Assembly (NCBI GenBank): GCA_030681595.1 | Contig: JAUXSB010000037.1 | Location: 64,319-128,318 of the forward strand | From: Candidatus Omnitrophota bacterium | Lineage (GTDB): Bacteria; Omnitrophota; Gorgyraeia; Ghiorseimicrobiales; Ghiorseimicrobiaceae | Reading direction: 5' to 3' | Length of the DNA: 64,000 bases | In this document: piece by piece, positions 3,938 to 63,341 of the stretch | How positions within the stretch are numbered: the stretch's first letter is position 1 | Layout of the letters: every line of letters begins with the position of its first letter | Notes under the pieces: generated by a model | Databases searched by the model: none | Told to the model about the DNA's origin: nothing | What the model saw: the letters and a program-made list of their open reading frames with translations, nothing else | Program-made: the position numbers and the translations under genes

Positions 3938-4312
3938 TTAAAGCATGGTTATGTTGAGGTTATGGTCTCTAAAGTAATTATAAATTTTATATACGGAAAA
4001 TGGATCTATCTCTATAAACCTGATACCGGCATCAAAGCATAAATTGGGGTGATTTTTGGTTTCGGATTCATAGACCCATGCGACTTCGCCTTTTGCCGGT
4101 AGGGATTCCTTTTCTCCTAATAATCTTATTTCTATGCTTAGCCTTGTGCCCACCTTTAGTTTTTCGGCTAAACACAGCCGTATGCCTCCGCCGCTGATAT
4201 TTTCTACCGAAAGAGCGTCTCTTTTGCCTATGCGCAGGCCACAGCGGTACCTTATACCGATCACATTACTTAGGTTAACTAATCTTTTATGCCTTCTTCT
4301 GTTGCTTGCCAT
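3938..4312 (-). CDS. Stand-alone PilZ-domain protein (c-di-GMP receptor candidate).
   Basis: 'RRRHKR' (RxxxR) and 'ENISGGGIRL' (DxSxxG-type) motifs. Confidence 0.7.
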   Translation of the reverse strand: MASNRRRHKRLVNLSNVIGIRYRCGLRIGKRDALSVENISGGGIRLCLAEKLKVGTRLSIEIRLLGEKESLPAKGEVAWVYESETKNHPNLCFDAGIRFIEIDPFSVYKIYNYFRDHNLNITML

Positions 4313-4329
4313 GTATTATATTAATTATA

Positions 4330-4908
4330 TTAGTAGTAGCCTTCTTGCCAGAGGCCTATTTTTTGAGTACGTGCTTTTTCCTGAAGCTGCCTAAACATAT
4401 CCGCATATTTTACGTTTGGCGGTATAGTCATAATCTTTGCGTATCCGGCTTCAATAATTTTAGCGTTAACAAATGTTCCGTCTTCAAGAAATATATAGGC
4501 TAATAATCGCTTGTATTTATCGCGTTTTTCTACATCAAATTCAAGGCGCGCTTTTTTATTCAAAAGTATTTCTTGGGTAAAGCTTTTGGCCAAAGCGCCC
4601 ATCTTTTTAATGCTTGCTATGTCTTTTTTGGCACGCCTTGCCTGGCGCAGGAGTTTTTCACTCTCATGGTATTCAGGTGTGTCTATCCCTATTAGCCTTA
4701 CCCAGGAGCCGTCTTTTAATTTTACTGTATCGCCGTCAGCTACATAGCTGACCAGTACAACATTATTATAAGCGTATTTTGGGCTAAAGGGAACAGAAAA
4801 TTTTGAAAAAGCGTATACTGCGGCTAAAATAAGAGCTAGGGAAACCGGCAGGATTTTCCAGAGCTTTTTGTGAAATATATTTATTTTACCCACTTTTTTA
4901 TTATACAT
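4330..4908 (-). CDS. Staphylococcal-nuclease (SNase/thermonuclease) homolog with an N-terminal membrane anchor.
   Basis: 'VSYVADGDTVKLKDGSWVRLIGIDTPE' is a classic SNase motif. Confidence 0.75.
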   Translation of the reverse strand: MYNKKVGKINIFHKKLWKILPVSLALILAAVYAFSKFSVPFSPKYAYNNVVLVSYVADGDTVKLKDGSWVRLIGIDTPEYHESEKLLRQARRAKKDIASIKKMGALAKSFTQEILLNKKARLEFDVEKRDKYKRLLAYIFLEDGTFVNAKIIEAGYAKIMTIPPNVKYADMFRQLQEKARTQKIGLWQEGYY

Positions 4909-5860
4909 TAGGTTTAATATTTAGTCCAGCAAATCTCGCAAGGCCTTGCGATTCCTGCACCCATCCGGAAGTTAACCCGAGTTTTTTCATTATGCCTGTG
5001 GCTATTTCGTATTCTTCGCAGGATATGCGCCGGTTAATTAGCGGAAATTCGCATGTCTTGTAGCAAGGAAAATATTGGCTCATTAGTGAGATATGGCATT
5101 GGCCGGATAATTCATTTTTTATAAAATACAAGATTTTCTCTGTACCGGCAATATTATTCGGAAGCACTAAATGCCTGATAATTATGCCTTTTTCTATGAC
5201 TCCATTAGGGTTTATTGCCGCGTTTCCTGCCTGTCTATACATTTCTTTTACCGCCTTTTGGTTAAATGAAGGATAGTCGTAAGCATTCGAGTATTTTTCC
5301 GCTATGAGGGCATCAGCATAGCGCATATCTGGAAGGTAGATATCTATTATGCCGTCAAGCAGCCTTAGAATAGGCACAAGTTCGTATCCGCCGGTATTGT
5401 ATACTAGAGGTATTTTTAGGCCTTTTTCTATGGCAACGCGGAGTGCTTCTAAGATTTGAGGCATAACATGCGTAGGAGTTACCAGATTAATATTATGTGC
5501 CCCTTGATGTTGTAGCTCCAGCATAAATTCGGCGAGTTCTTCTTTTTTTACCTCTCTGCCCTCTCCTTCTTGCGATAATTTATAGTTTTGACAGTATACG
5601 CATTTTAAATTGCAGTGCGTAAAAAAAATGGTGCCGGAACCGCTTGTTCCTGAAATTGGCGGTTCTTCTCCGTGATGGAGGAAATAACTGGTGACAATGG
5701 CGTTTCTACCGGTTTTGCAAACTCCCTTTTCGTCTTTTAGGCGGTTTATGCGGCATTTTCTTGGGCAGATAACGCAGGATTCCAGCAGTTTTTTGGCCGA
5801 TTCAACCCTTTTTATTAATTCTCCTGTTTTGTAGAGGTTAAGGTATGAAGGGTAAAGCAT
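4901..5860 (-). CDS. Radical SAM protein, PflX/COG1313-like (PFL-activase-like paralog).
   Basis: N-terminal 'CVICPRKCRIN...GVCKTG' plus 'THCNLKCVYCQNY'. Confidence 0.6.
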   Translation of the reverse strand: MLYPSYLNLYKTGELIKRVESAKKLLESCVICPRKCRINRLKDEKGVCKTGRNAIVTSYFLHHGEEPPISGTSGSGTIFFTHCNLKCVYCQNYKLSQEGEGREVKKEELAEFMLELQHQGAHNINLVTPTHVMPQILEALRVAIEKGLKIPLVYNTGGYELVPILRLLDGIIDIYLPDMRYADALIAEKYSNAYDYPSFNQKAVKEMYRQAGNAAINPNGVIEKGIIIRHLVLPNNIAGTEKILYFIKNELSGQCHISLMSQYFPCYKTCEFPLINRRISCEEYEIATGIMKKLGLTSGWVQESQGLARFAGLNIKPNV

Positions 5861-5864
5861 AGGG

Positions 5865-6779
5865 TTATTGTGTTAGATTTGCTCCGTCTTTAGTGCAGAA
5901 TTTATATTCGGGAGGGTAATTTTTGCCGCATTTCGGGCATCGTTTTAGTATCTTTGAAGGATTTTTTTCTTCTTTATTGGGCTGTATCTCTTGCCCGGCC
6001 TGGTTAATTTTTTGCAGATCGATCTCTTTTTTGGCATTATTAATCCTTTCATCTATAGCCGGATGGGATTCAAGAAATGCGATATGGTAATTTATCCCTT
6101 TTTTCTTTTCTTCTTCTTTAAGTTTTTCAAAAAACGTGATCATTCCTTCCGGCTTAAAGTCGGATTTTAACGCGTATTTAATCGCCAGCCTGTCGGAAAG
6201 CCGCTCGTCTTCCCGCGAGTAACCCAATGCGATAAGGTTAAATACGGTATTTACGGCGCGGTTTAATTCTACGGAAGTCGCGTTCCTAAGGGCAAGGCCC
6301 ATGATTAGCTGATAGCCTAAGCTGACCTGTAATTTCTTCGCGGCGTGGCGCGCAGCAATATGGCCTATTTCATGCCCTACCACACAGGCAAGTTCGTCAT
6401 CACTGGCTATGTCCATTAACCCGGAGTTAACATATACAAAGCCGCCCGGAAGCGAAAAAGCGTTTAGGCCTTCGTCTTTTACTACCTTAAAATAATATTT
6501 TAAGTCTTTGCGGTCTGAAATTTCCGCTATTTTTTCGCCGATTTTATCAAGCCGCGCAATAGCTCTAGCGTCTTTAGATAAAGGGTATTGCAGCTCAATT
6601 TGTTTTGAGATTACCTTTCCTAAAGAGGCTTCTGACGGGGTATCTATTAAGACGAGCTCTTTTTTTTCTGTCGCGGGATTATAGATTGTCGCGCATCCGC
6701 ACATAAAGAAAGCGCACACGACCCAAGCCGTCGCTTGGGTTCCCCGGCGCACAACGCAAAGCGATAATCGTTTAAACAT
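5865..6779 (-). CDS. M48-family Zn metalloprotease lipoprotein with a C-terminal zinc ribbon.
   Basis: HExxH 'VVGHEIGHIAARH', lipobox 'FFMCGCA', C-terminal 'CPKCGKNYPPEYKFCTKDG'. Confidence 0.75.
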   Translation of the reverse strand: MFKRLSLCVVRRGTQATAWVVCAFFMCGCATIYNPATEKKELVLIDTPSEASLGKVISKQIELQYPLSKDARAIARLDKIGEKIAEISDRKDLKYYFKVVKDEGLNAFSLPGGFVYVNSGLMDIASDDELACVVGHEIGHIAARHAAKKLQVSLGYQLIMGLALRNATSVELNRAVNTVFNLIALGYSREDERLSDRLAIKYALKSDFKPEGMITFFEKLKEEEKKKGINYHIAFLESHPAIDERINNAKKEIDLQKINQAGQEIQPNKEEKNPSKILKRCPKCGKNYPPEYKFCTKDGANLTQ

Positions 6780-7299
6780 TTTTTCTTTGCTGCATAAAGA
6801 TGCTGCGGATTTGGTTGAATATTTCGATGTATTCCTTGCTTTGATAGTCAGGGTATGTCCATGGGTATGGCTTAAAAGCCGTTTTACTAAACACCATGGT
6901 AGTTTCTGCGTATATCCCGTCTTTTAAGTAAATGCGGTGCGAATAATCCTTTATGGTAGCTAAGATTATCTTCGCGTCGTTTAAATAGCCGGGGTCTAAA
7001 TTTAGGCAACGCCTGCCGTCTTTAGAAAAATTTTTTTCTAATCTATTGGTGATAACTTTAATCGCGCTGATTTTATCGCCAGATATAAGATTTCTAAAGC
7101 TAAAGAATTTACGTTTAAGGTTTGCGCCTAATTCCTTTTCGTAGTAATTGGTATAATCAAATTCTAATATATGGCTTTCGAGGTCGATAATGCCGAACTT
7201 GGCGGTAAGGATTTTTTTTATTGCGGCAAGCAGGGGTAAGTCTTTAAAGATAACACCGATAAATAATTTTACTTTCTTAACTTTTACTGCTTTTCCCAT
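6772..7299 (-). CDS. Hypothetical protein, possibly DUF4416-like.
   Basis: ORF with an internal start at 'MGKAVKVKKVKLFIGVIF'. The DUF4416 assignment is from memory and weak. Confidence 0.4.
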   Translation of the reverse strand: MGKAVKVKKVKLFIGVIFKDLPLLAAIKKILTAKFGIIDLESHILEFDYTNYYEKELGANLKRKFFSFRNLISGDKISAIKVITNRLEKNFSKDGRRCLNLDPGYLNDAKIILATIKDYSHRIYLKDGIYAETTMVFSKTAFKPYPWTYPDYQSKEYIEIFNQIRSIFMQQRKNV

Positions 7300-58643: not shown

Positions 58644-59531
58644 TCAAATTCCTGGCCAAACAGGCTGCTGCTCCATCCAGTCAAACAGTTGCTCATAGAC
58701 ATCTTTATGTATCCTGGCCCACTTGATAATTTTTTCGAGCTGCTTCCTGCTTTTTGCAATTGGAATATTCACTCCTGCCCATTTAAATAGGCCTTCTAAT
58801 TTATGAGTATTGACTCTAAATATTGCAAAGGGTATGCGTGCTTTAGACGCCGCATATACGCCGTGGTGTTGGCCTGTAATATAGATATTGGCATTGCGCA
58901 GGCTGCTGACAATGTAGGACCAGTCAGCGATACTGTCTAAACGCTCTGCTTCTCCTCCAAAATTTAATCTGGGCATGCCCGTAAACATAGGGTGCGTATG
59001 GTCAAATGCGTCAAATCTATGCATATTTCTAGGATAAAAGGTACCCACGACATCCTTTCCTGAAAATTGACCTGATTCCTTAGATTCATCAACCTTATAT
59101 GAATAGCTTAAGTCAAGGTACATCTGCGGCTTAACGCCTTGTGTTTTCTCCATTTCTTTTTGACTGCAAATTTCTCTTACCCATAAACCGTCTAATGATT
59201 TTAATACATTTCTCCATCCGGGATTCATTTTCTGCCATACGCAGTTTATTAAATATGCCTTTTTACCTAGTTGCTTGGCTAATTTTAACCCTTCAAGAAG
59301 GCTGCTCGCGCGTCCCTTGTGCCAGCTGGTTCTCTCGTTATTTAACGCCCCTTCGCCATTTACTATAATAGCATCGCATTCGTGGATTGCTTTTAGGTCG
59401 GGTCCGTGTGGCCTGAGCGTAGAACAAGTAATATCATGGCCTTTAGCAATAAGCTTCTCTCTAAGTGAAGCCATTGCAGCCCAGCTGCCAGCGTGATATC
59501 TAGATGTATCATTAGCGATATATACTTTCAT
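58644..59531 (-). CDS. Hypothetical protein (polysaccharide-modification candidate; weak resemblance to pyruvyl-transferase-like proteins).
   Basis: ORF only. No confident motif. Confidence 0.35.
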   Translation of the reverse strand: MKVYIANDTSRYHAGSWAAMASLREKLIAKGHDITCSTLRPHGPDLKAIHECDAIIVNGEGALNNERTSWHKGRASSLLEGLKLAKQLGKKAYLINCVWQKMNPGWRNVLKSLDGLWVREICSQKEMEKTQGVKPQMYLDLSYSYKVDESKESGQFSGKDVVGTFYPRNMHRFDAFDHTHPMFTGMPRLNFGGEAERLDSIADWSYIVSSLRNANIYITGQHHGVYAASKARIPFAIFRVNTHKLEGLFKWAGVNIPIAKSRKQLEKIIKWARIHKDVYEQLFDWMEQQPVWPGI

Positions 59532-59547
59532 CTTTTTATTTAACGGT

Positions 59548-59606
59548 TACCGTGGAAATCATCATCCAGCCGTTCAATATCATCTTCTTCCAAATAGCTT
59601 CCGCTT
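59548..59606. repeat. 59-bp direct repeat (58/59 identical) duplicating the last ~19 codons of manC; copy 1.
   Basis: Identical to 61885-61943 apart from one A/G. The reverse complement translates to 'EVQSGSYLEEDDIERLDDDFHGNR*'. Confidence 0.9.
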
Positions 59607-59612
59607 TGGACT

Positions 59613-60395
59613 TCACTTTGTAATGTCGTGCCCGCTTCCGCTGTTTCTACCCGTTGCGCACCCCCCGGGGTGCGTATGGTTGTATTGTCCAAAGGTATAT
59701 TCCAAGTTTTTGAGGTCGTTTATCATCTGGTTGTGAAATTCAGGTAGATATTCTAATATGATATTGCCGTTCCAGCCGCTTTCTTTCAAATAGCCCACTA
59801 TGTCTTTACAAAAATCGTCAATAGGCAGGTGATGTTTTTCGCTCCCCTTAGAAGAAAGATGGACATTTACAATATTTTCTTTGTAGTTTTTAACTAAATG
59901 CCAGATTTTTTCATTATCTTCTATGTGGGCAGCATCCAGCGTCATTGGTAAGTTAAATTTGACTATTTCATCGGGGTCAAAAACTCTTCTTTTTCCAGTA
60001 AAAGTTTCGATGCTAAAAATAATTTTTCCTTTATATAATTGGTTAAAATACCTTAAATTTTGAAGCGCTTTCTTTTGATTGATTTGGTTTTTGTTTGTAT
60101 TATTTGGATGCAGCGTTATGATCCCCACATTTAGCAGTATTGCGAAGTCGGCTATTTCTTTCCCCCATATCTTAAATTCTTCATTTGTAAGAGGCGCTTG
60201 TACCGCGTGGATAGACAAAATTTCCGTGGAAAAACTTTTTATTTTTTCAGCGATTACTTTTAAATGCGGCCTAATTGGATTATAAATATCCCGATAATAG
60301 GGTAATGCTAATTCAATAGGCGTATTTAAGCCGGATAGCCTTTCTTCTATTTGTTCGATGTTTTCAAATGATTGTCTAATCCCAAATTTTAACAT
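59613..60395 (-). CDS. Hypothetical protein, possibly a xylose-isomerase-like TIM-barrel sugar-phosphate isomerase/epimerase.
   Basis: ORF only. The assignment is weak. Confidence 0.3.
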   Translation of the reverse strand: MLKFGIRQSFENIEQIEERLSGLNTPIELALPYYRDIYNPIRPHLKVIAEKIKSFSTEILSIHAVQAPLTNEEFKIWGKEIADFAILLNVGIITLHPNNTNKNQINQKKALQNLRYFNQLYKGKIIFSIETFTGKRRVFDPDEIVKFNLPMTLDAAHIEDNEKIWHLVKNYKENIVNVHLSSKGSEKHHLPIDDFCKDIVGYLKESGWNGNIILEYLPEFHNQMINDLKNLEYTFGQYNHTHPGGCATGRNSGSGHDITK

Positions 60396-60505
60396 ATGTA
60401 ATTTAAAATTACTTTAATTTTCCTGTCGCGTTTTATTATGCTATGTAGTTTAGTTTTAACTAAATTTCAAGACATAATTGAATTTTTTTTAAAATAACCA
60501 TACTT

Positions 60506-60546
60506 TACCACCTCCGAGGAGACCTTTGGCCACCTCGGAGGTGGTA
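60506..60546. repeat. 14-bp inverted repeat TACCACCTCCGAGG/CCTCGGAGGTGGTA; GC-rich palindromic element related to the one at 16506.
   Basis: Read directly in the spacer between 59613-60395 and 60555-61220. Confidence 0.7.
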
Positions 60547-60554
60547 TTTCGTCT

Positions 60555-61220
60555 TCAAATTATTTTTTGCGCCAGGCGATGAAGTTCTGGATTGGCTAAA
60601 GCTGCTACCTTCTTTTTGACTGTCCGGGAATAATATTCTCTTTCTGTCTTGCTTAGCTTTTCACCTTTGAGTTTTTTAAAAAACAGCTCTTTCTGTTTAG
60701 GAGAAAAAACCTGTGAAAGAGCGTATTCAAGATCAAATCCCTCTTTCATGGTGACAAAATCTTTTAGTTTTGCCTCTTCCTTATGAAAATAGTTACTGAA
60801 TGTGTTTTTTAGCCTCTGCGGCGATAAGCGCATGCCGCAAACTGTAAGTTCATCCTTATTCTTAAATTTACCAAGGTATGAGTTAAAAGCTTTTTGATAT
60901 TGTGCGAGATTTTTAGAAACATCATTAACCCAGAAAAAAACTAAATCAAGGGTTTTATATAAAGCAAGCGACATTATTAGCAATTGATCTAAACATTTTT
61001 TTTCAGCCTGTTTTTTAAGCTGAACTTTTACTTTTTCATATTCAAATAAGCCATCTTTGGCGGCATTTGCCAATAAAAGAGGAAAGCCTTCCCATAGCCG
61101 CAGGTTATGACTTGTAACAGCTTGAGCCAGGGTAGCATTAGCGTCAACGTCTTCGTCTTTTTCTAAAAGAGGATAACCCATTATTCCGACTTTTTTTAAG
61201 AGCGCTTCATTTTTCATTGT
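60555..61220 (-). CDS. Hypothetical protein, putative partner of the upstream nucleotidyltransferase.
   Basis: ORF with an internal Met start at 'MKNEALLKK'. Overlaps the upstream gene by 14 nt. Confidence 0.35.
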   Translation of the reverse strand, partial: TMKNEALLKKVGIMGYPLLEKDEDVDANATLAQAVTSHNLRLWEGFPLLLANAAKDGLFEYEKVKVQLKKQAEKKCLDQLLIMSLALYKTLDLVFFWVNDVSKNLAQYQKAFNSYLGKFKNKDELTVCGMRLSPQRLKNTFSNYFHKEEAKLKDFVTMKEGFDLEYALSQVFSPKQKELFFKKLKGEKLSKTEREYYSRTVKKKVAALANPELHRLAQKII

Positions 61221-61797
61221 ATAATCCTTCTTTATGAAGAATTTTAACAAAATACGATAAATTCTTATTAATTTTTTCTTCCGAAACGTCATATGAGGCA
61301 GTTTCATTAAAACGTTTCAAGAGTATTTTTAAGTCAATTTCGTGTTTTTTGGCTTTTACCAAAAGCAGGCAATCATCTATATCAACACTGCTTGCCCTAA
61401 AAAGCTTACTGATGATAAGATCGTAATGATTAAGTACTCCTAGATAAACAGATTTAAATTCTTTAATCAGTGTGTGATTTCCTTCTTTAAGCGGTGATTC
61501 CAGCAATTCTGTCGTATGGATCCGTTTTCCCCTGAATAAGTCAAAAATAAATCCCCCGTCTTTTGTCCATCCGGAACCGCTAGCGTGCTTGTAGCCTAAA
61601 TCTTGTAAAATACGCAAAAGATAATCATATTCTGTTTCGTTGGGCACTAATAGGTCGATATCCTTAGTGGATTCTTTTATGCCTAAAAGTGTCATAGCTG
61701 TGCCGCCGCAGGCGATCAAATGTACCTCTCGCTTAAGATAGCTGTTCCATGCAGAAAGCGTATCTAGTAAACTGTTTTTATTTATCCTATGTTCCAT
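61207..61797 (-). CDS. Pol-beta-superfamily nucleotidyltransferase-domain protein.
   Basis: 'HLIACGGTAMTLLGIKESTKDIDLLV' fits the hG[GS]-x(9-13)-DhD signature. Confidence 0.5.
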   Translation of the reverse strand: MEHRINKNSLLDTLSAWNSYLKREVHLIACGGTAMTLLGIKESTKDIDLLVPNETEYDYLLRILQDLGYKHASGSGWTKDGGFIFDLFRGKRIHTTELLESPLKEGNHTLIKEFKSVYLGVLNHYDLIISKLFRASSVDIDDCLLLVKAKKHEIDLKILLKRFNETASYDVSEEKINKNLSYFVKILHKEGLYNEK

Positions 61798-61874
61798 ACA
61801 ATTATTTGTATAAATTCATACAACTTCTTGTATATAATTATACAAGATATTTGATGTTTTGTCAAGGGCCTTCA

Positions 61875-63341
61875 TTATCTCTTAAAATCATCATCCAGCC
61901 GTTCAATATCATCTTCTTCCAAGTAGCTTCCGCTTTGGACTTCTACGATTTTAAGCGGTTTGTTTGCCGGGTTTTCCAAACGGTGCAGTTGTTCCGGAGC
62001 GACAAAGATACTTTCGTTGCTATGTACAAGATTTTCTTTACCTTGGCAGGTAACCTTTGCTGTGCCTTCTACTACTACCCAGTGCTCGCTTCTGAATTTA
62101 TGCCGTTGCAAACTTAGGCGTTTGCCTGCCAAAAGCTCAATTACCTTAACTTTATAGCCATTCCCTTTATTTATTACTGTATATGTTCCCCATGGACGTT
62201 TTACGGTATTTGATGAAAAATGTTCGTAGCCGCCGGCTTGTTTTACTTTTTCTACCATCTTCTTTACGTCTTCTGCCTTTTCTTTGTGGCAGATAAGAAG
62301 CGCGTCTTCCGTATCAGCGATAATTAAATCTTTAAGCCCGATAGTTGAGATAAGGCGGTTTTGACCGAGTATTATTACGTTTCGGCTGTCTATGTCTATG
62401 GAATTTGCCTGAACAATATTTTCGTTTTTATCCTTAGAAAGAAGCGTATCCAAGGCGCAAAGAGTGCCCAAATCGCTCCAACCAAGGTTAAATACTGGGA
62501 TAACAACGCTATTTTTTGACTTTTCAAGCACTCCGTAGTCAATGGATATGGAATTAAGATTTTTATATATTTTTTGGATATCTTCGCCATTTGCGATTTT
62601 TGTCAGCTCCTTATGCAATTTGGGCAGGTATTTTTTTGTTTCGTTTAATATAACTTTTGCCTTGACAATAAACATTCCGCTGTTCCAGAAGTAATTTTTA
62701 TCCTTGATGTACTTTTTTGCTTTTTTAAGATCCGGCTTTTCTACGAATTTTTGCACTTTATGCCATTTTGCATTTTTAATTTTTAATTTTTCATTTACCT
62801 TGATATAGCCATATCCGGTCGCGGGGTTTGTGGGTTTGATACCCAAAGTTACGATATGATTATCTTTGGCGACAGTTACAGCCGTTTTAAGCGTAGAGAT
62901 GAATTTCTTGTTATCGGCGATATGATGATCCGCGGGTAGTATGATTAGGGTTGGATCGCTATCTTTCTTAATGATGTTGACAGCGGCAAGTCCTATAGCA
63001 GGGGCTGTGTTTTTGCCTTCCGGCTCAATTATTATATTGCTTTCGGGTATGCCGAATATTGATGCCTGCTGTGTAAGTTCAAATTTATGCAGGTTGTTAG
63101 TTATAATATAAATTAGCGCAGGCGTTACTAACGGGATAATCCGCTTTATGGTTTGCTGAAGCAGTGATTCATCGCCGTAGAATTTCAGTAAATGTTTTGG
63201 CTCTATTTGGCGGCTTAGGGGCCAAAATCTGGTTCCAGAGCCTCCGGCAAGGATAACCGCGTATGTATTGTCTTTCGTTGTGGATATTGAGTTGTGAGTA
63301 TCGCGTTTCATTTTTTGATAAATGGGATAAATATGATACAC
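61875..63341 (-). CDS. manC: Mannose-1-phosphate guanylyltransferase / mannose-6-phosphate isomerase (bifunctional ManC type, cupin C-terminus).
   Basis: 'AVILAGGSGTRFWPLSR', 'GYGYIK' and a C-terminal cupin 'HRSEHWVVVEGTAKV'. Confidence 0.9.
   Translation of the reverse strand: MYHIYPIYQKMKRDTHNSISTTKDNTYAVILAGGSGTRFWPLSRQIEPKHLLKFYGDESLLQQTIKRIIPLVTPALIYIITNNLHKFELTQQASIFGIPESNIIIEPEGKNTAPAIGLAAVNIIKKDSDPTLIILPADHHIADNKKFISTLKTAVTVAKDNHIVTLGIKPTNPATGYGYIKVNEKLKIKNAKWHKVQKFVEKPDLKKAKKYIKDKNYFWNSGMFIVKAKVILNETKKYLPKLHKELTKIANGEDIQKIYKNLNSISIDYGVLEKSKNSVVIPVFNLGWSDLGTLCALDTLLSKDKNENIVQANSIDIDSRNVIILGQNRLISTIGLKDLIIADTEDALLICHKEKAEDVKKMVEKVKQAGGYEHFSSNTVKRPWGTYTVINKGNGYKVKVIELLAGKRLSLQRHKFRSEHWVVVEGTAKVTCQGKENLVHSNESIFVAPEQLHRLENPANKPLKIVEVQSGSYLEEDDIERLDDDFKR
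61885..61943. repeat. 59-bp direct repeat, copy 2 (the authentic 3' end of manC).
   Basis: See copy 1 at 59548-59606. Confidence 0.9.

Follow-up and report, generated by a model that had tools for sequence, protein, structure and literature searches.

Why does a genome carry the last 59 nucleotides (nt) of its manC gene a second time, with three other genes in between? The question is raised by Candidatus Omnitrophota contig JAUXSB010000037.1 (GenBank assembly GCA_030681595.1), of which we analysed a stretch of 64,000 nt (forward-strand positions 64,319 to 128,318), hereafter the window. The enclosed genes include an overlapping pair that encodes a DUF6036 nucleotidyltransferase and a partner protein of 220 amino acids (aa). 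An earlier, sequence-only reading of this DNA took the two manC ends to flank a small inserted islet. Having compared the locus with relatives and with other sites that carry the same gene pair, we lean towards the view that the repeats are the two ends of an inserted selfish cassette that may spread by way of them.

The two repeat copies are identical at 58 of 59 positions, with a single mismatch (A at 59594, G at 61923), and lie 2329 nt apart. The sequence-only reading had reported a near-perfect 59-bp repeat and had placed its right copy correctly, but its left copy, given as 59548-59606, was set 8 nt too low (Table 1). With up to three mismatches allowed, the repeat occurs only twice in the 64 kb, where shuffled sequences lead us to expect no such match, and no other comparable long direct repeat is found elsewhere in the window. 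For the window, we therefore rejected a dispersed repeat family, which had been named in advance as a finding that would speak against an insertion. At 59 nt, the flanking repeat is longer than the 30 bp, and unique in its region, as Furuta et al. 2010 ask of such repeats. Between the copies lie 2,270 nt (2.27 kb) of unique sequence. All three minus-strand genes that the sequence-only reading had described there were found: a TIM barrel, the 220-aa partner and the overlapping Pol-beta-type nucleotidyltransferase. Searches of Pfam, NCBIfam, PADLOC and PHROGs revealed no transposase, integrase or phage gene among the three, and the insert is shorter than 20 kb.

The insertion left manC intact. 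Its product matches the Pfam families NTP_transferase (E = 1.2e-48), MannoseP_isomer (4.6e-43) and ManC beta-helix (1.4e-20), and measures 488 aa as open reading frame (ORF) 61875-63341 or 478 aa in the NCBI call, which uses a later start. The C-terminus, DDDFKR followed by the stop, is the usual ending of the clade (C-termini of 22 homologues), and the best manC relatives are all Candidatus Omnitrophota. The downstream copy is a remnant that reads through the manC tail into a new stop, as had been proposed, within a 50-aa ORF (59540-59692) ending ...EVQSGSYLEEDDIERLDDDFHGNR. Its HGNR tail is not native to manC and ends 8 nt short of the pyruvyl-transferase start codon. None of the top 120 ManC homologues has HGN within its last 12 residues, and the endings of the closest ones include KR, NR and QR. 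We therefore rejected HGNR as the original end of manC; with no ManC among these 120 ending in this way, the tail of the remnant is best explained as a product of the junction.

The arrangement is not an assembly artefact, an explanation we rejected on two grounds. Logan contigs of run SRR13727519, an independent assembly, match the window at 100% identity, and their only breaks fall within the repeat, as expected of a k=31 graph. Additionally, an independent metagenome-assembled genome (MAG), locus L003, shows the same architecture inside a single 83-kb contig.

Comparison with relatives revealed both an empty and a second occupied site. In the closest manC relative that we found, locus L151, manC is 84% identical to that of the window at the aa level and the upstream synteny is the same, including the DAGK gene. 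There, manC is followed 11 nt on by a methyltransferase gene, with one repeat copy and no cassette. This empty site bears out the earlier claim that the intervening DNA was inserted. The single L151 copy is 86% identical to the repeat in the window, and since the next gene is not the pyruvyl transferase, only the manC side of the junction aligns. The sequence-only reading had suggested looking for relatives in which manC abuts gene 58644-59531; manC of L151 does abut its next gene, although that gene is the methyltransferase.

L003 is occupied, and its manC is more distant (71% aa identity). The order there is manC, nucleotidyltransferase (87% aa), partner (80% aa), manC-tail repeat and Wzm start codon. 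The two repeat copies span 65 nt at 91% identity, and only 58 nt, with no TIM-barrel gene, separate the partner stop from the repeat. The insertion was to count as refuted if relatives showed the same repeats around unrelated, conserved core content. The outcome is mixed: the repeats recur in L003, yet what lies between them is again the cassette and not a set of unrelated core genes. In both the window and L003, the remnant has the same inner boundary and a few bases past the repeat are shared (TTACAA.G.), and the outer flanks differ. An alignment of window 59623-59556 with L003 12827-12894 gives 88% identity, and the window remnant is orthologous to that of L003. The gene downstream of the site is different in each genome: pyruvyl transferase in the window, Wzm/Wzt in L003 and methyltransferase in L151.

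What was inserted has consistent boundaries. Across ten aligned loci, conservation extends from the -35 box of a consensus promoter to the stop codon of the partner gene. The TTGTAT and ATACA(A) columns of the putative operators are invariant in this alignment, and a third TTGTAT half-site (61801-61796) overlaps the nucleotidyltransferase start codon. The cassettes compared share neither terminal inverted repeats nor a common 3′ flank. A strong stem-loop directly after the partner stop is possibly a terminator or the 3′ boundary of the cassette; a comparison of 3′ flanks revealed no counterpart in L003. The sequence-only reading had called the islet decayed. Instead, its core is an intact, strongly conserved cassette whose proteins have about 1,650 and 2,100 homologues: 1,653 for the nucleotidyltransferase and 2,121, all unnamed, for the partner. 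The two proteins always co-occur, and their homologues are nearly all unnamed and mostly on Omnitrophota contigs. For about a quarter of the top 120 transferase homologues, the longest contig is ~1.3-1.75 kb, near the length of the cassette. These lengths hint at assembly breaks at both cassette edges, as flanking repeats or presence/absence polymorphism would produce, in collections whose contigs are generally short.

Table 1 Features of the manC locus, in window coordinates.
Feature	Position	Strand	Remarks
manC (mannose-1-phosphate guanylyltransferase / mannose-6-phosphate isomerase)	61875..63311	-	Host gene of the duplicated 3′ end
Upstream repeat copy (T-up)	61885..61943	-	Last 59 nt of manC coding sequence (19-20 codons); stops before the final KR codons
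Downstream repeat copy (T-down)	59556..59614	-	manC 3′-end remnant within the 50-aa ORF 59540-59692
Cassette promoter	61837..61865	-	TTGACA, 17-nt spacer, TATAAT; 12/12 match to the sigma-70 consensus; sole perfect match in the promoter scan
Putative operators	61796..61845	-	TTGTAT-N6-ATACAA palindromes at 61845-61828 and 61823-61806; coordinates read from the sequence
DUF6036 Pol-beta-fold nucleotidyltransferase	61207..61797	-	196 aa; Pfam PF19502, E = 3.8e-9
Partner protein	60555..61217	-	220 aa; all-helical; no described family
Stem-loop directly after the partner stop	60509..60545	-	DNA fold -18.8 kcal/mol, z = -8.4
TIM-barrel gene	59613..60395	-	260 aa; weakly xylose-isomerase-like; Pfam AP_endonuc_2, E = 1.6e-4, below cut-off
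Polysaccharide pyruvyl-transferase-like gene	58644..59531	-	Pfam PS_pyruv_trans, E = 2.1e-6; host gene downstream, outside the islet

We then asked what the cassette encodes. The nucleotidyltransferase scores 37.0 bits against PF19502 over residues 24-181, above the gathering cut-off of 23.6, which places it in DUF6036, a family for which we found no mention in the literature. It keeps the catalytic GG...DxD motif (G31 G32 ... D46 I47 D48). Its AlphaFold2 (AF2) model has a predicted local distance difference test score (pLDDT) of 90.9, and the best match in the PDB is the MenT1 toxin (8an5_A, E = 3.7e-5), with a moderate template modelling (TM) score of 0.50; ANT(2″)-Ia, TM1012 and LnuA follow. 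The enzyme is probably a toxin of the MenT/AbiEii type. The sequence-only reading had proposed a check against MNT/HEPN, AbiEii and CBASS-like families. The nucleotidyltransferase, besides falling in DUF6036, gave marginal PADLOC matches to AbiEii (E = 0.002 and 0.02) and no match to Pfam AbiEii (PF08843/DUF1814); the partner matched no family in Pfam, NCBIfam, PADLOC or PHROGs. The AF2 model of the partner has a pLDDT of 75.7. Its alignment contains an invariant C-terminal block, KQKELF...KTE.EY.SR, and the C-terminal part resembles a helix-turn-helix by eye. The partner is a probable antitoxin and autorepressor.

The two genes overlap by 11 nt, with the nucleotidyltransferase first. By analogy with known pairs, they would act as a toxin-antitoxin module or one of the abortive-infection type, the partner neutralising the transferase and, by way of the palindromes, repressing the promoter. 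The toxin-antitoxin likeness noted in the sequence-only reading gains from the MenT1 fold match, the gene overlap, the consensus promoter with palindromes, and the AbiE, MNT/HEPN and defence neighbours at other sites.

DUF6036 genes are also found on haloarchaeal plasmids. On Halobacterium zhouii plasmid NZ_CP089595.1 (L152 1500-3226), a MarR-family regulator gene precedes the DUF6036 transferase gene, with a 4-nt overlap. Haloarchaeal-plasmid DUF6036 transferases are ~30% identical and lie near orc/cdc6 replication genes, in an AbiE-like layout whose gene order is opposite to that of the Omnitrophota pair; the regulator that precedes them is MarR/AbiEi-like. Plasmid carriage of the pair was rejected, as plasmids yielded only these ~30%-identical haloarchaeal genes. 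Phage carriage was rejected too: an operator-motif scan of viral contigs gave 56 matches, none of which encodes the pair, and a phage collection contained no match.

Cassette and repeat have diverged less than the host genes. When the window is compared with L003, manC ranges from 53 to 83% nucleotide identity, with 63% for the 60 nt directly ahead of the repeat. The repeat itself reaches 90% and the cassette 70-95% (mostly 85-95%), and identity collapses past the partner stop. The step from 63% to 90% falls exactly at the manC-proximal edge of T-up. Among codons for identical amino acids, 53% differ in manC and 30-34% in CysD/CysN, compared with 20-22% in the cassette genes. Between repeat copies (window, L003, L087 and L034), a manual count found that 13 of 15 coding differences are synonymous in the host frame. 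Such mostly synonymous differences argue against a remnant that decays in place and fit repeated crossovers with functional alleles. Taken together, the low divergence of cassette and repeat and the synonymous differences point to spread by recombination through the repeat, as far as these sequences can tell.

The manC alleles (window 61875-63311, L003 10001-11437, L151 10001-11443) are far more diverged than the conserved neighbours, and third-codon-position identity between the window and L003 is 45% in manC and 66-67% in CysD/CysN. From the alignments, alleles and gene clusters seem to be replaced unusually often at the manC locus, as in a hotspot.

Does the pattern recur elsewhere? We examined nine independent contexts of the pair, comparing the flanks with each other and with shuffled controls. 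The cassette occupies other polysaccharide and exosortase loci (L082, L084/86, L087 and L148), lies among clusters of AbiE, MNT/HEPN and similar pairs (L087 and L089), and is found beside helicase-nuclease and AAA ATPase genes of the defence type (L090); in L083 it adjoins a tyrosine integrase. Flanking direct repeats long enough to exceed the shuffle range occur in the window and L003, where they derive from the manC 3′ end (59-65 nt), and in L087, L089, L090 and L147. The L087 repeat consists of 36 nt, the first 11 codons of manC; one copy abuts the -35 box and the other lies 1 nt after the partner stop. In L089, the repeat is intergenic, 74 nt long and 99% identical, within a longer imperfect duplication.

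Cargo of other kinds is bracketed in the same way. In L034, a gene for a 403-aa ATPase of the DUF4143/AAA_14 type (4248-5459) lies between 48-nt copies (4114-4161 and 5596-5643) of the junction between the end of the upstream gene and the manC start codon. Inside the manC frame these copies differ at six nucleotides, in every case synonymously, and the "dead" copy resembles a piece of another functional allele. In L051, a zeta-toxin-like P-loop ORF (6051-6653) and a 92-aa ORF behind it lie between 36-nt copies (5962-5997 and 6813-6848; 94% identical) that repeat the 3′ end of an oxidoreductase-subunit gene located upstream, with a GDP-mannose dehydratase gene right after. A DUF6788/NTP_transf_8 pair in L089 is likewise bracketed by repeats. 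Because unrelated cargo is flanked in a similar manner, the phenomenon is cargo-independent, with the duplicated sequence supplied by the local target.

These comparisons suggest how the cassette might cycle. The cassette comprises its own promoter and putative operator palindromes, the DUF6036 transferase and the helix-rich partner up to the stop codon; in the window genome the TIM barrel has been added behind. Insertion would leave the manC 3′ end intact, keep the upstream context of the downstream gene and require no element-encoded recombinase. The cassette could later loop out by homologous recombination between its flanking repeats. The excised circle, bearing one repeat copy, could then re-enter genomes with a similar manC tail through Campbell-type integration. 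Cassette and repeat would thereby travel between Omnitrophota lineages as one unit, each crossover refreshing the repeat.

The strongest competing account, which we regard as unlikely but take seriously, is a static ancient insertion. The cassette would have entered once, with target duplication, in the common ancestor of the window and L003. Vertical inheritance, gene conversion between the copies, loss from L151 via the repeats, and later swaps of manC alleles and downstream clusters would have done the rest. This history would account for a remnant boundary that is the same in both genomes, with bases shared past it, and for variants that the two copies share within a genome (CGG CTG in both window copies, CGT TTG in both L003 copies). 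The different genes downstream of manC in the three genomes, together with the very divergent manC alleles, indicate that the replacements it calls for do occur at this locus. It also fits the identity step and the synonymous pattern, though less economically: replacements must happen to end at repeat edges, with that of manC stopping exactly at the repeat and the downstream one starting exactly at the remnant end. It is harder to square with synonymous divergence that is lower in the cassette than in CysD/CysN. A remnant that had been neutral since the split should, moreover, carry many changes of the non-synonymous type, which this one does not. Two further accounts seem to us weaker. An integrase-mediated islet, which we think improbable, would have a recombinase encoded elsewhere recognise a core in the manC tail and mobilise the islet in trans, the repeats being attL and attR, one of the two origins that the sequence-only reading had named. 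A duplicated gene 3′ end is indeed the classic signature of integrative elements, the cassette copy in L083 adjoins a tyrosine integrase gene, and the site is occupied in two species. However, the islet contains no recombinase, and neither do the window-covered flanks, ~11 kb downstream and 2 kb upstream, just as the sequence-only reading had seen none inside. Nor do cassettes have conserved ends outside the promoter and coding region. Other cassette copies are flanked by duplications unrelated in sequence and length, or by none, unrelated cargo is flanked likewise, and the repeat lacks attC-like secondary structure. The attL/attR interpretation is thus not supported. Least probable is a decayed paralogue, in which the left copy would be the last piece of a second manC-like gene, tandem or foreign, and the three genes between would be ordinary residents. 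Bases upstream of the remnants are faintly reminiscent of the ManC C-terminus (RVE...LQSEVQSG compared with RLEN...KIVEVQSG), and the stretch upstream of the remnant is richer in G+C than its surroundings. Against this, in both the window and L003 the repeat edge is where similarity abruptly ends, the empty L151 site has manC directly abutting the next gene, and manC 5′ starts bracket the cassette elsewhere, which a decayed 3′ paralogue does not explain.

Several observations temper our preference for a cassette that spreads through its repeats. Most of the data also follow from a single ancient insertion with gene conversion and precise loss in L151. Five genes underlie the divergence contrast, and the identity step comes from a 59-nt segment coding for a protein motif that does not vary; against L151, too, the repeat is more conserved (86%) than the remainder of manC (79.5%). 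Four of the nine cassette contexts (L082, L083, L084/86 and L148) have no flanking repeat. The repeats of L090 and L147 belong to a GC-rich hairpin family common to different genomes and may not be target duplications, and we left them out of the target-duplication count. The k=31 Logan graph fits an integrated form and a circle plus empty site alike, and we saw no read from an excised circle or an empty site. Toxicity, neutralisation and DNA binding by the pair are predictions from sequence and model, and a PDB fold search with the partner model returned no significant relative. A wider proposal is possible but doubtful: that Omnitrophota harbour a range of recombinase-free mobile cassettes, carrying toxin-antitoxin-like pairs, orphan ATPases or other selfish genes. 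Each would use a short stretch copied from a conserved host gene end as a portable homology arm and cycle between genomes by host-RecA excision and Campbell-type re-integration, with crossovers keeping the remnant like live coding sequence.

The remaining features of the locus and of its counterparts can be described briefly. The site lies in a polysaccharide locus with pyruvyl transferase, epimerase, CDP-alcohol phosphatidyltransferase, IspD-like, CysD, CysN and glycosyltransferase genes, and with a tyrosine-kinase-like ATPase gene and the DAGK gene in its upstream part. No known RNA family matches anywhere across 59000-62300. The TIM-barrel protein also matches NCBIfam CbiR below cut-off (E = 1.9e-7), and tblastn found its gene in no other fetched locus. 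Judged by sequence, it is add-on cargo between the partner and the downstream repeat, present only in the window genome among the loci compared. Within the last codons of the TIM-barrel ORF lies a GC-rich hairpin (59657-59676) with a C4G6 run (59664-59673). A one-base frame change at this run would join the TIM-barrel protein to the manC-tail remnant (...GAQRVETAEAGTTLQSEVQSGSYLEEDDIERLDDDFHGNR, then the stop).

In L083 (3858-5335), the DUF6036 pair is followed by sequence that resembles the 5′ part of a tRNA (GCGCCCGTAGCTCAGTGGATAGAGCG..., not called by ARAGORN). A tyrosine-integrase-like ORF in the opposite orientation comes next, and the pair may sit at the border of an integrated element. 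GC-rich hairpin repeats, such as GGCGGGGCGCGG...CCGCGCCCCGCC, separate small accessory modules in AT-rich Omnitrophota, and one such repeat is common to two different genomes. We located them in L090 (2898-2969, 4697-4768 and 6247-6318), L147 (1718-1800 and 83-114/2193-2224) and L089 (2839-2900, 4801-4840 and 6281-6320). They may be repetitive extragenic palindromic (REP)-like elements, terminators or recombination sites, and they make the module arrays resemble cassette arrays.

Set against known systems, the locus shares part of its character with several. Like integrative islands that target tRNA genes or dusA, it has a gene-end repeat on both sides, the copy that adjoins the insert making the interrupted gene whole again. 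Unlike them, the cassette has no integrase and no conserved att core, and the duplicated sequence differs from site to site. Independent insertions share no attachment sequence: they are flanked by the manC 5′ start (36 nt), an intergenic segment (74 nt) or nothing. Integron cassettes, some of which carry toxin-antitoxin genes with their own promoters, and clusters of attC sites lacking integron-integrases (CALIN arrays) offer another parallel. They too are compact recombinase-less modules of one or two genes, and L089 and L090 contain rows of modules separated by hairpin repeats. We rejected an attC origin of the window repeat, which is manC coding sequence, folds weakly (a local hairpin, z about -1.8 to -2.0) and is not accompanied by a conserved cassette 3′ flank; neither an IntI gene nor an attI site was seen.

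As a gene pair, the cassette is closest to AbiE and MenAT. It shares with them a two-domain nucleotidyltransferase of the Pol-beta fold whose GG...DxD motif is intact and whose best structural match is MenT1, an overlapping two-gene operon, a partner that is likely to bind DNA, a promoter that looks autoregulated, and surroundings with AbiE and MNT/HEPN genes. In contrast, the transferase belongs to DUF6036 rather than AbiEii (DUF1814/PF08843), its gene comes first and its structural match is moderate. The antitoxins AbiEi (winged-helix, COG5340) and MenA are encoded upstream, whereas the partner described here is encoded downstream and has neither AbiEi or MenA similarity nor a fold relative. 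The DUF6036 transferase and its family-less partner define an uncharacterised and very widespread Omnitrophota pair, which its predicted operator makes directly testable. For annotators, short "pseudo-gene tails" beside polysaccharide genes in such MAGs may be insertion scars and may break assemblies.

By analogy, cassette and repeat together match insertion with long target duplication, which is a little-studied mode of mobility, and match neither an integrase att site nor attC. This mode was reportedly first described by Nobusato et al. in 2000 (Gene 259:99). The likeness lies in a small selfish unit that lacks transposase and integrase and in flanking repeats of more than 30 bp; at the empty site of L151, where the repeat occurs once, the manC side of the junction aligns. 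With two occupied sites, each in a different species, and one empty site, this locus and its relatives provide a clean example of an insertion that spares both neighbouring genes. To our knowledge, little is understood of the ways in which toxin-antitoxin and small defence modules pass between genomes when no transposase or integrase is involved; recombinase-free cycling, if true, would explain such movement without transposition machinery.

The closest precedent is the insertion of restriction-modification units. Their target duplications vary and exceed 30 bp, no mobility genes are present, and the repeats match a single copy at the empty site (PMC2853133). Overlap with the 3′ end of an adjacent gene is common, and length and sequence vary by site (PMC2853133). 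For such units, a cycle has been hypothesised in which they insert, amplify and are released by way of the repeats (Furuta, Abe and Kobayashi 2010, Nucleic Acids Research; PMC2853133). The resemblance concerns the mode of insertion. The cargo is different here, a DUF6036 nucleotidyltransferase, a novel partner and a TIM barrel rather than a complete restriction-modification unit, and for this pair there is no obvious connection with restriction-induced DNA breaks such as was proposed for those units. The host is also different, an Omnitrophota bacterium. Joint movement of cassette and repeat, only hypothesised for restriction-modification units, is suggested here by the divergence pattern. If true, recombinase-free cycling would give the virus-like life cycle proposed for those units, but never shown, its first support at the sequence level.

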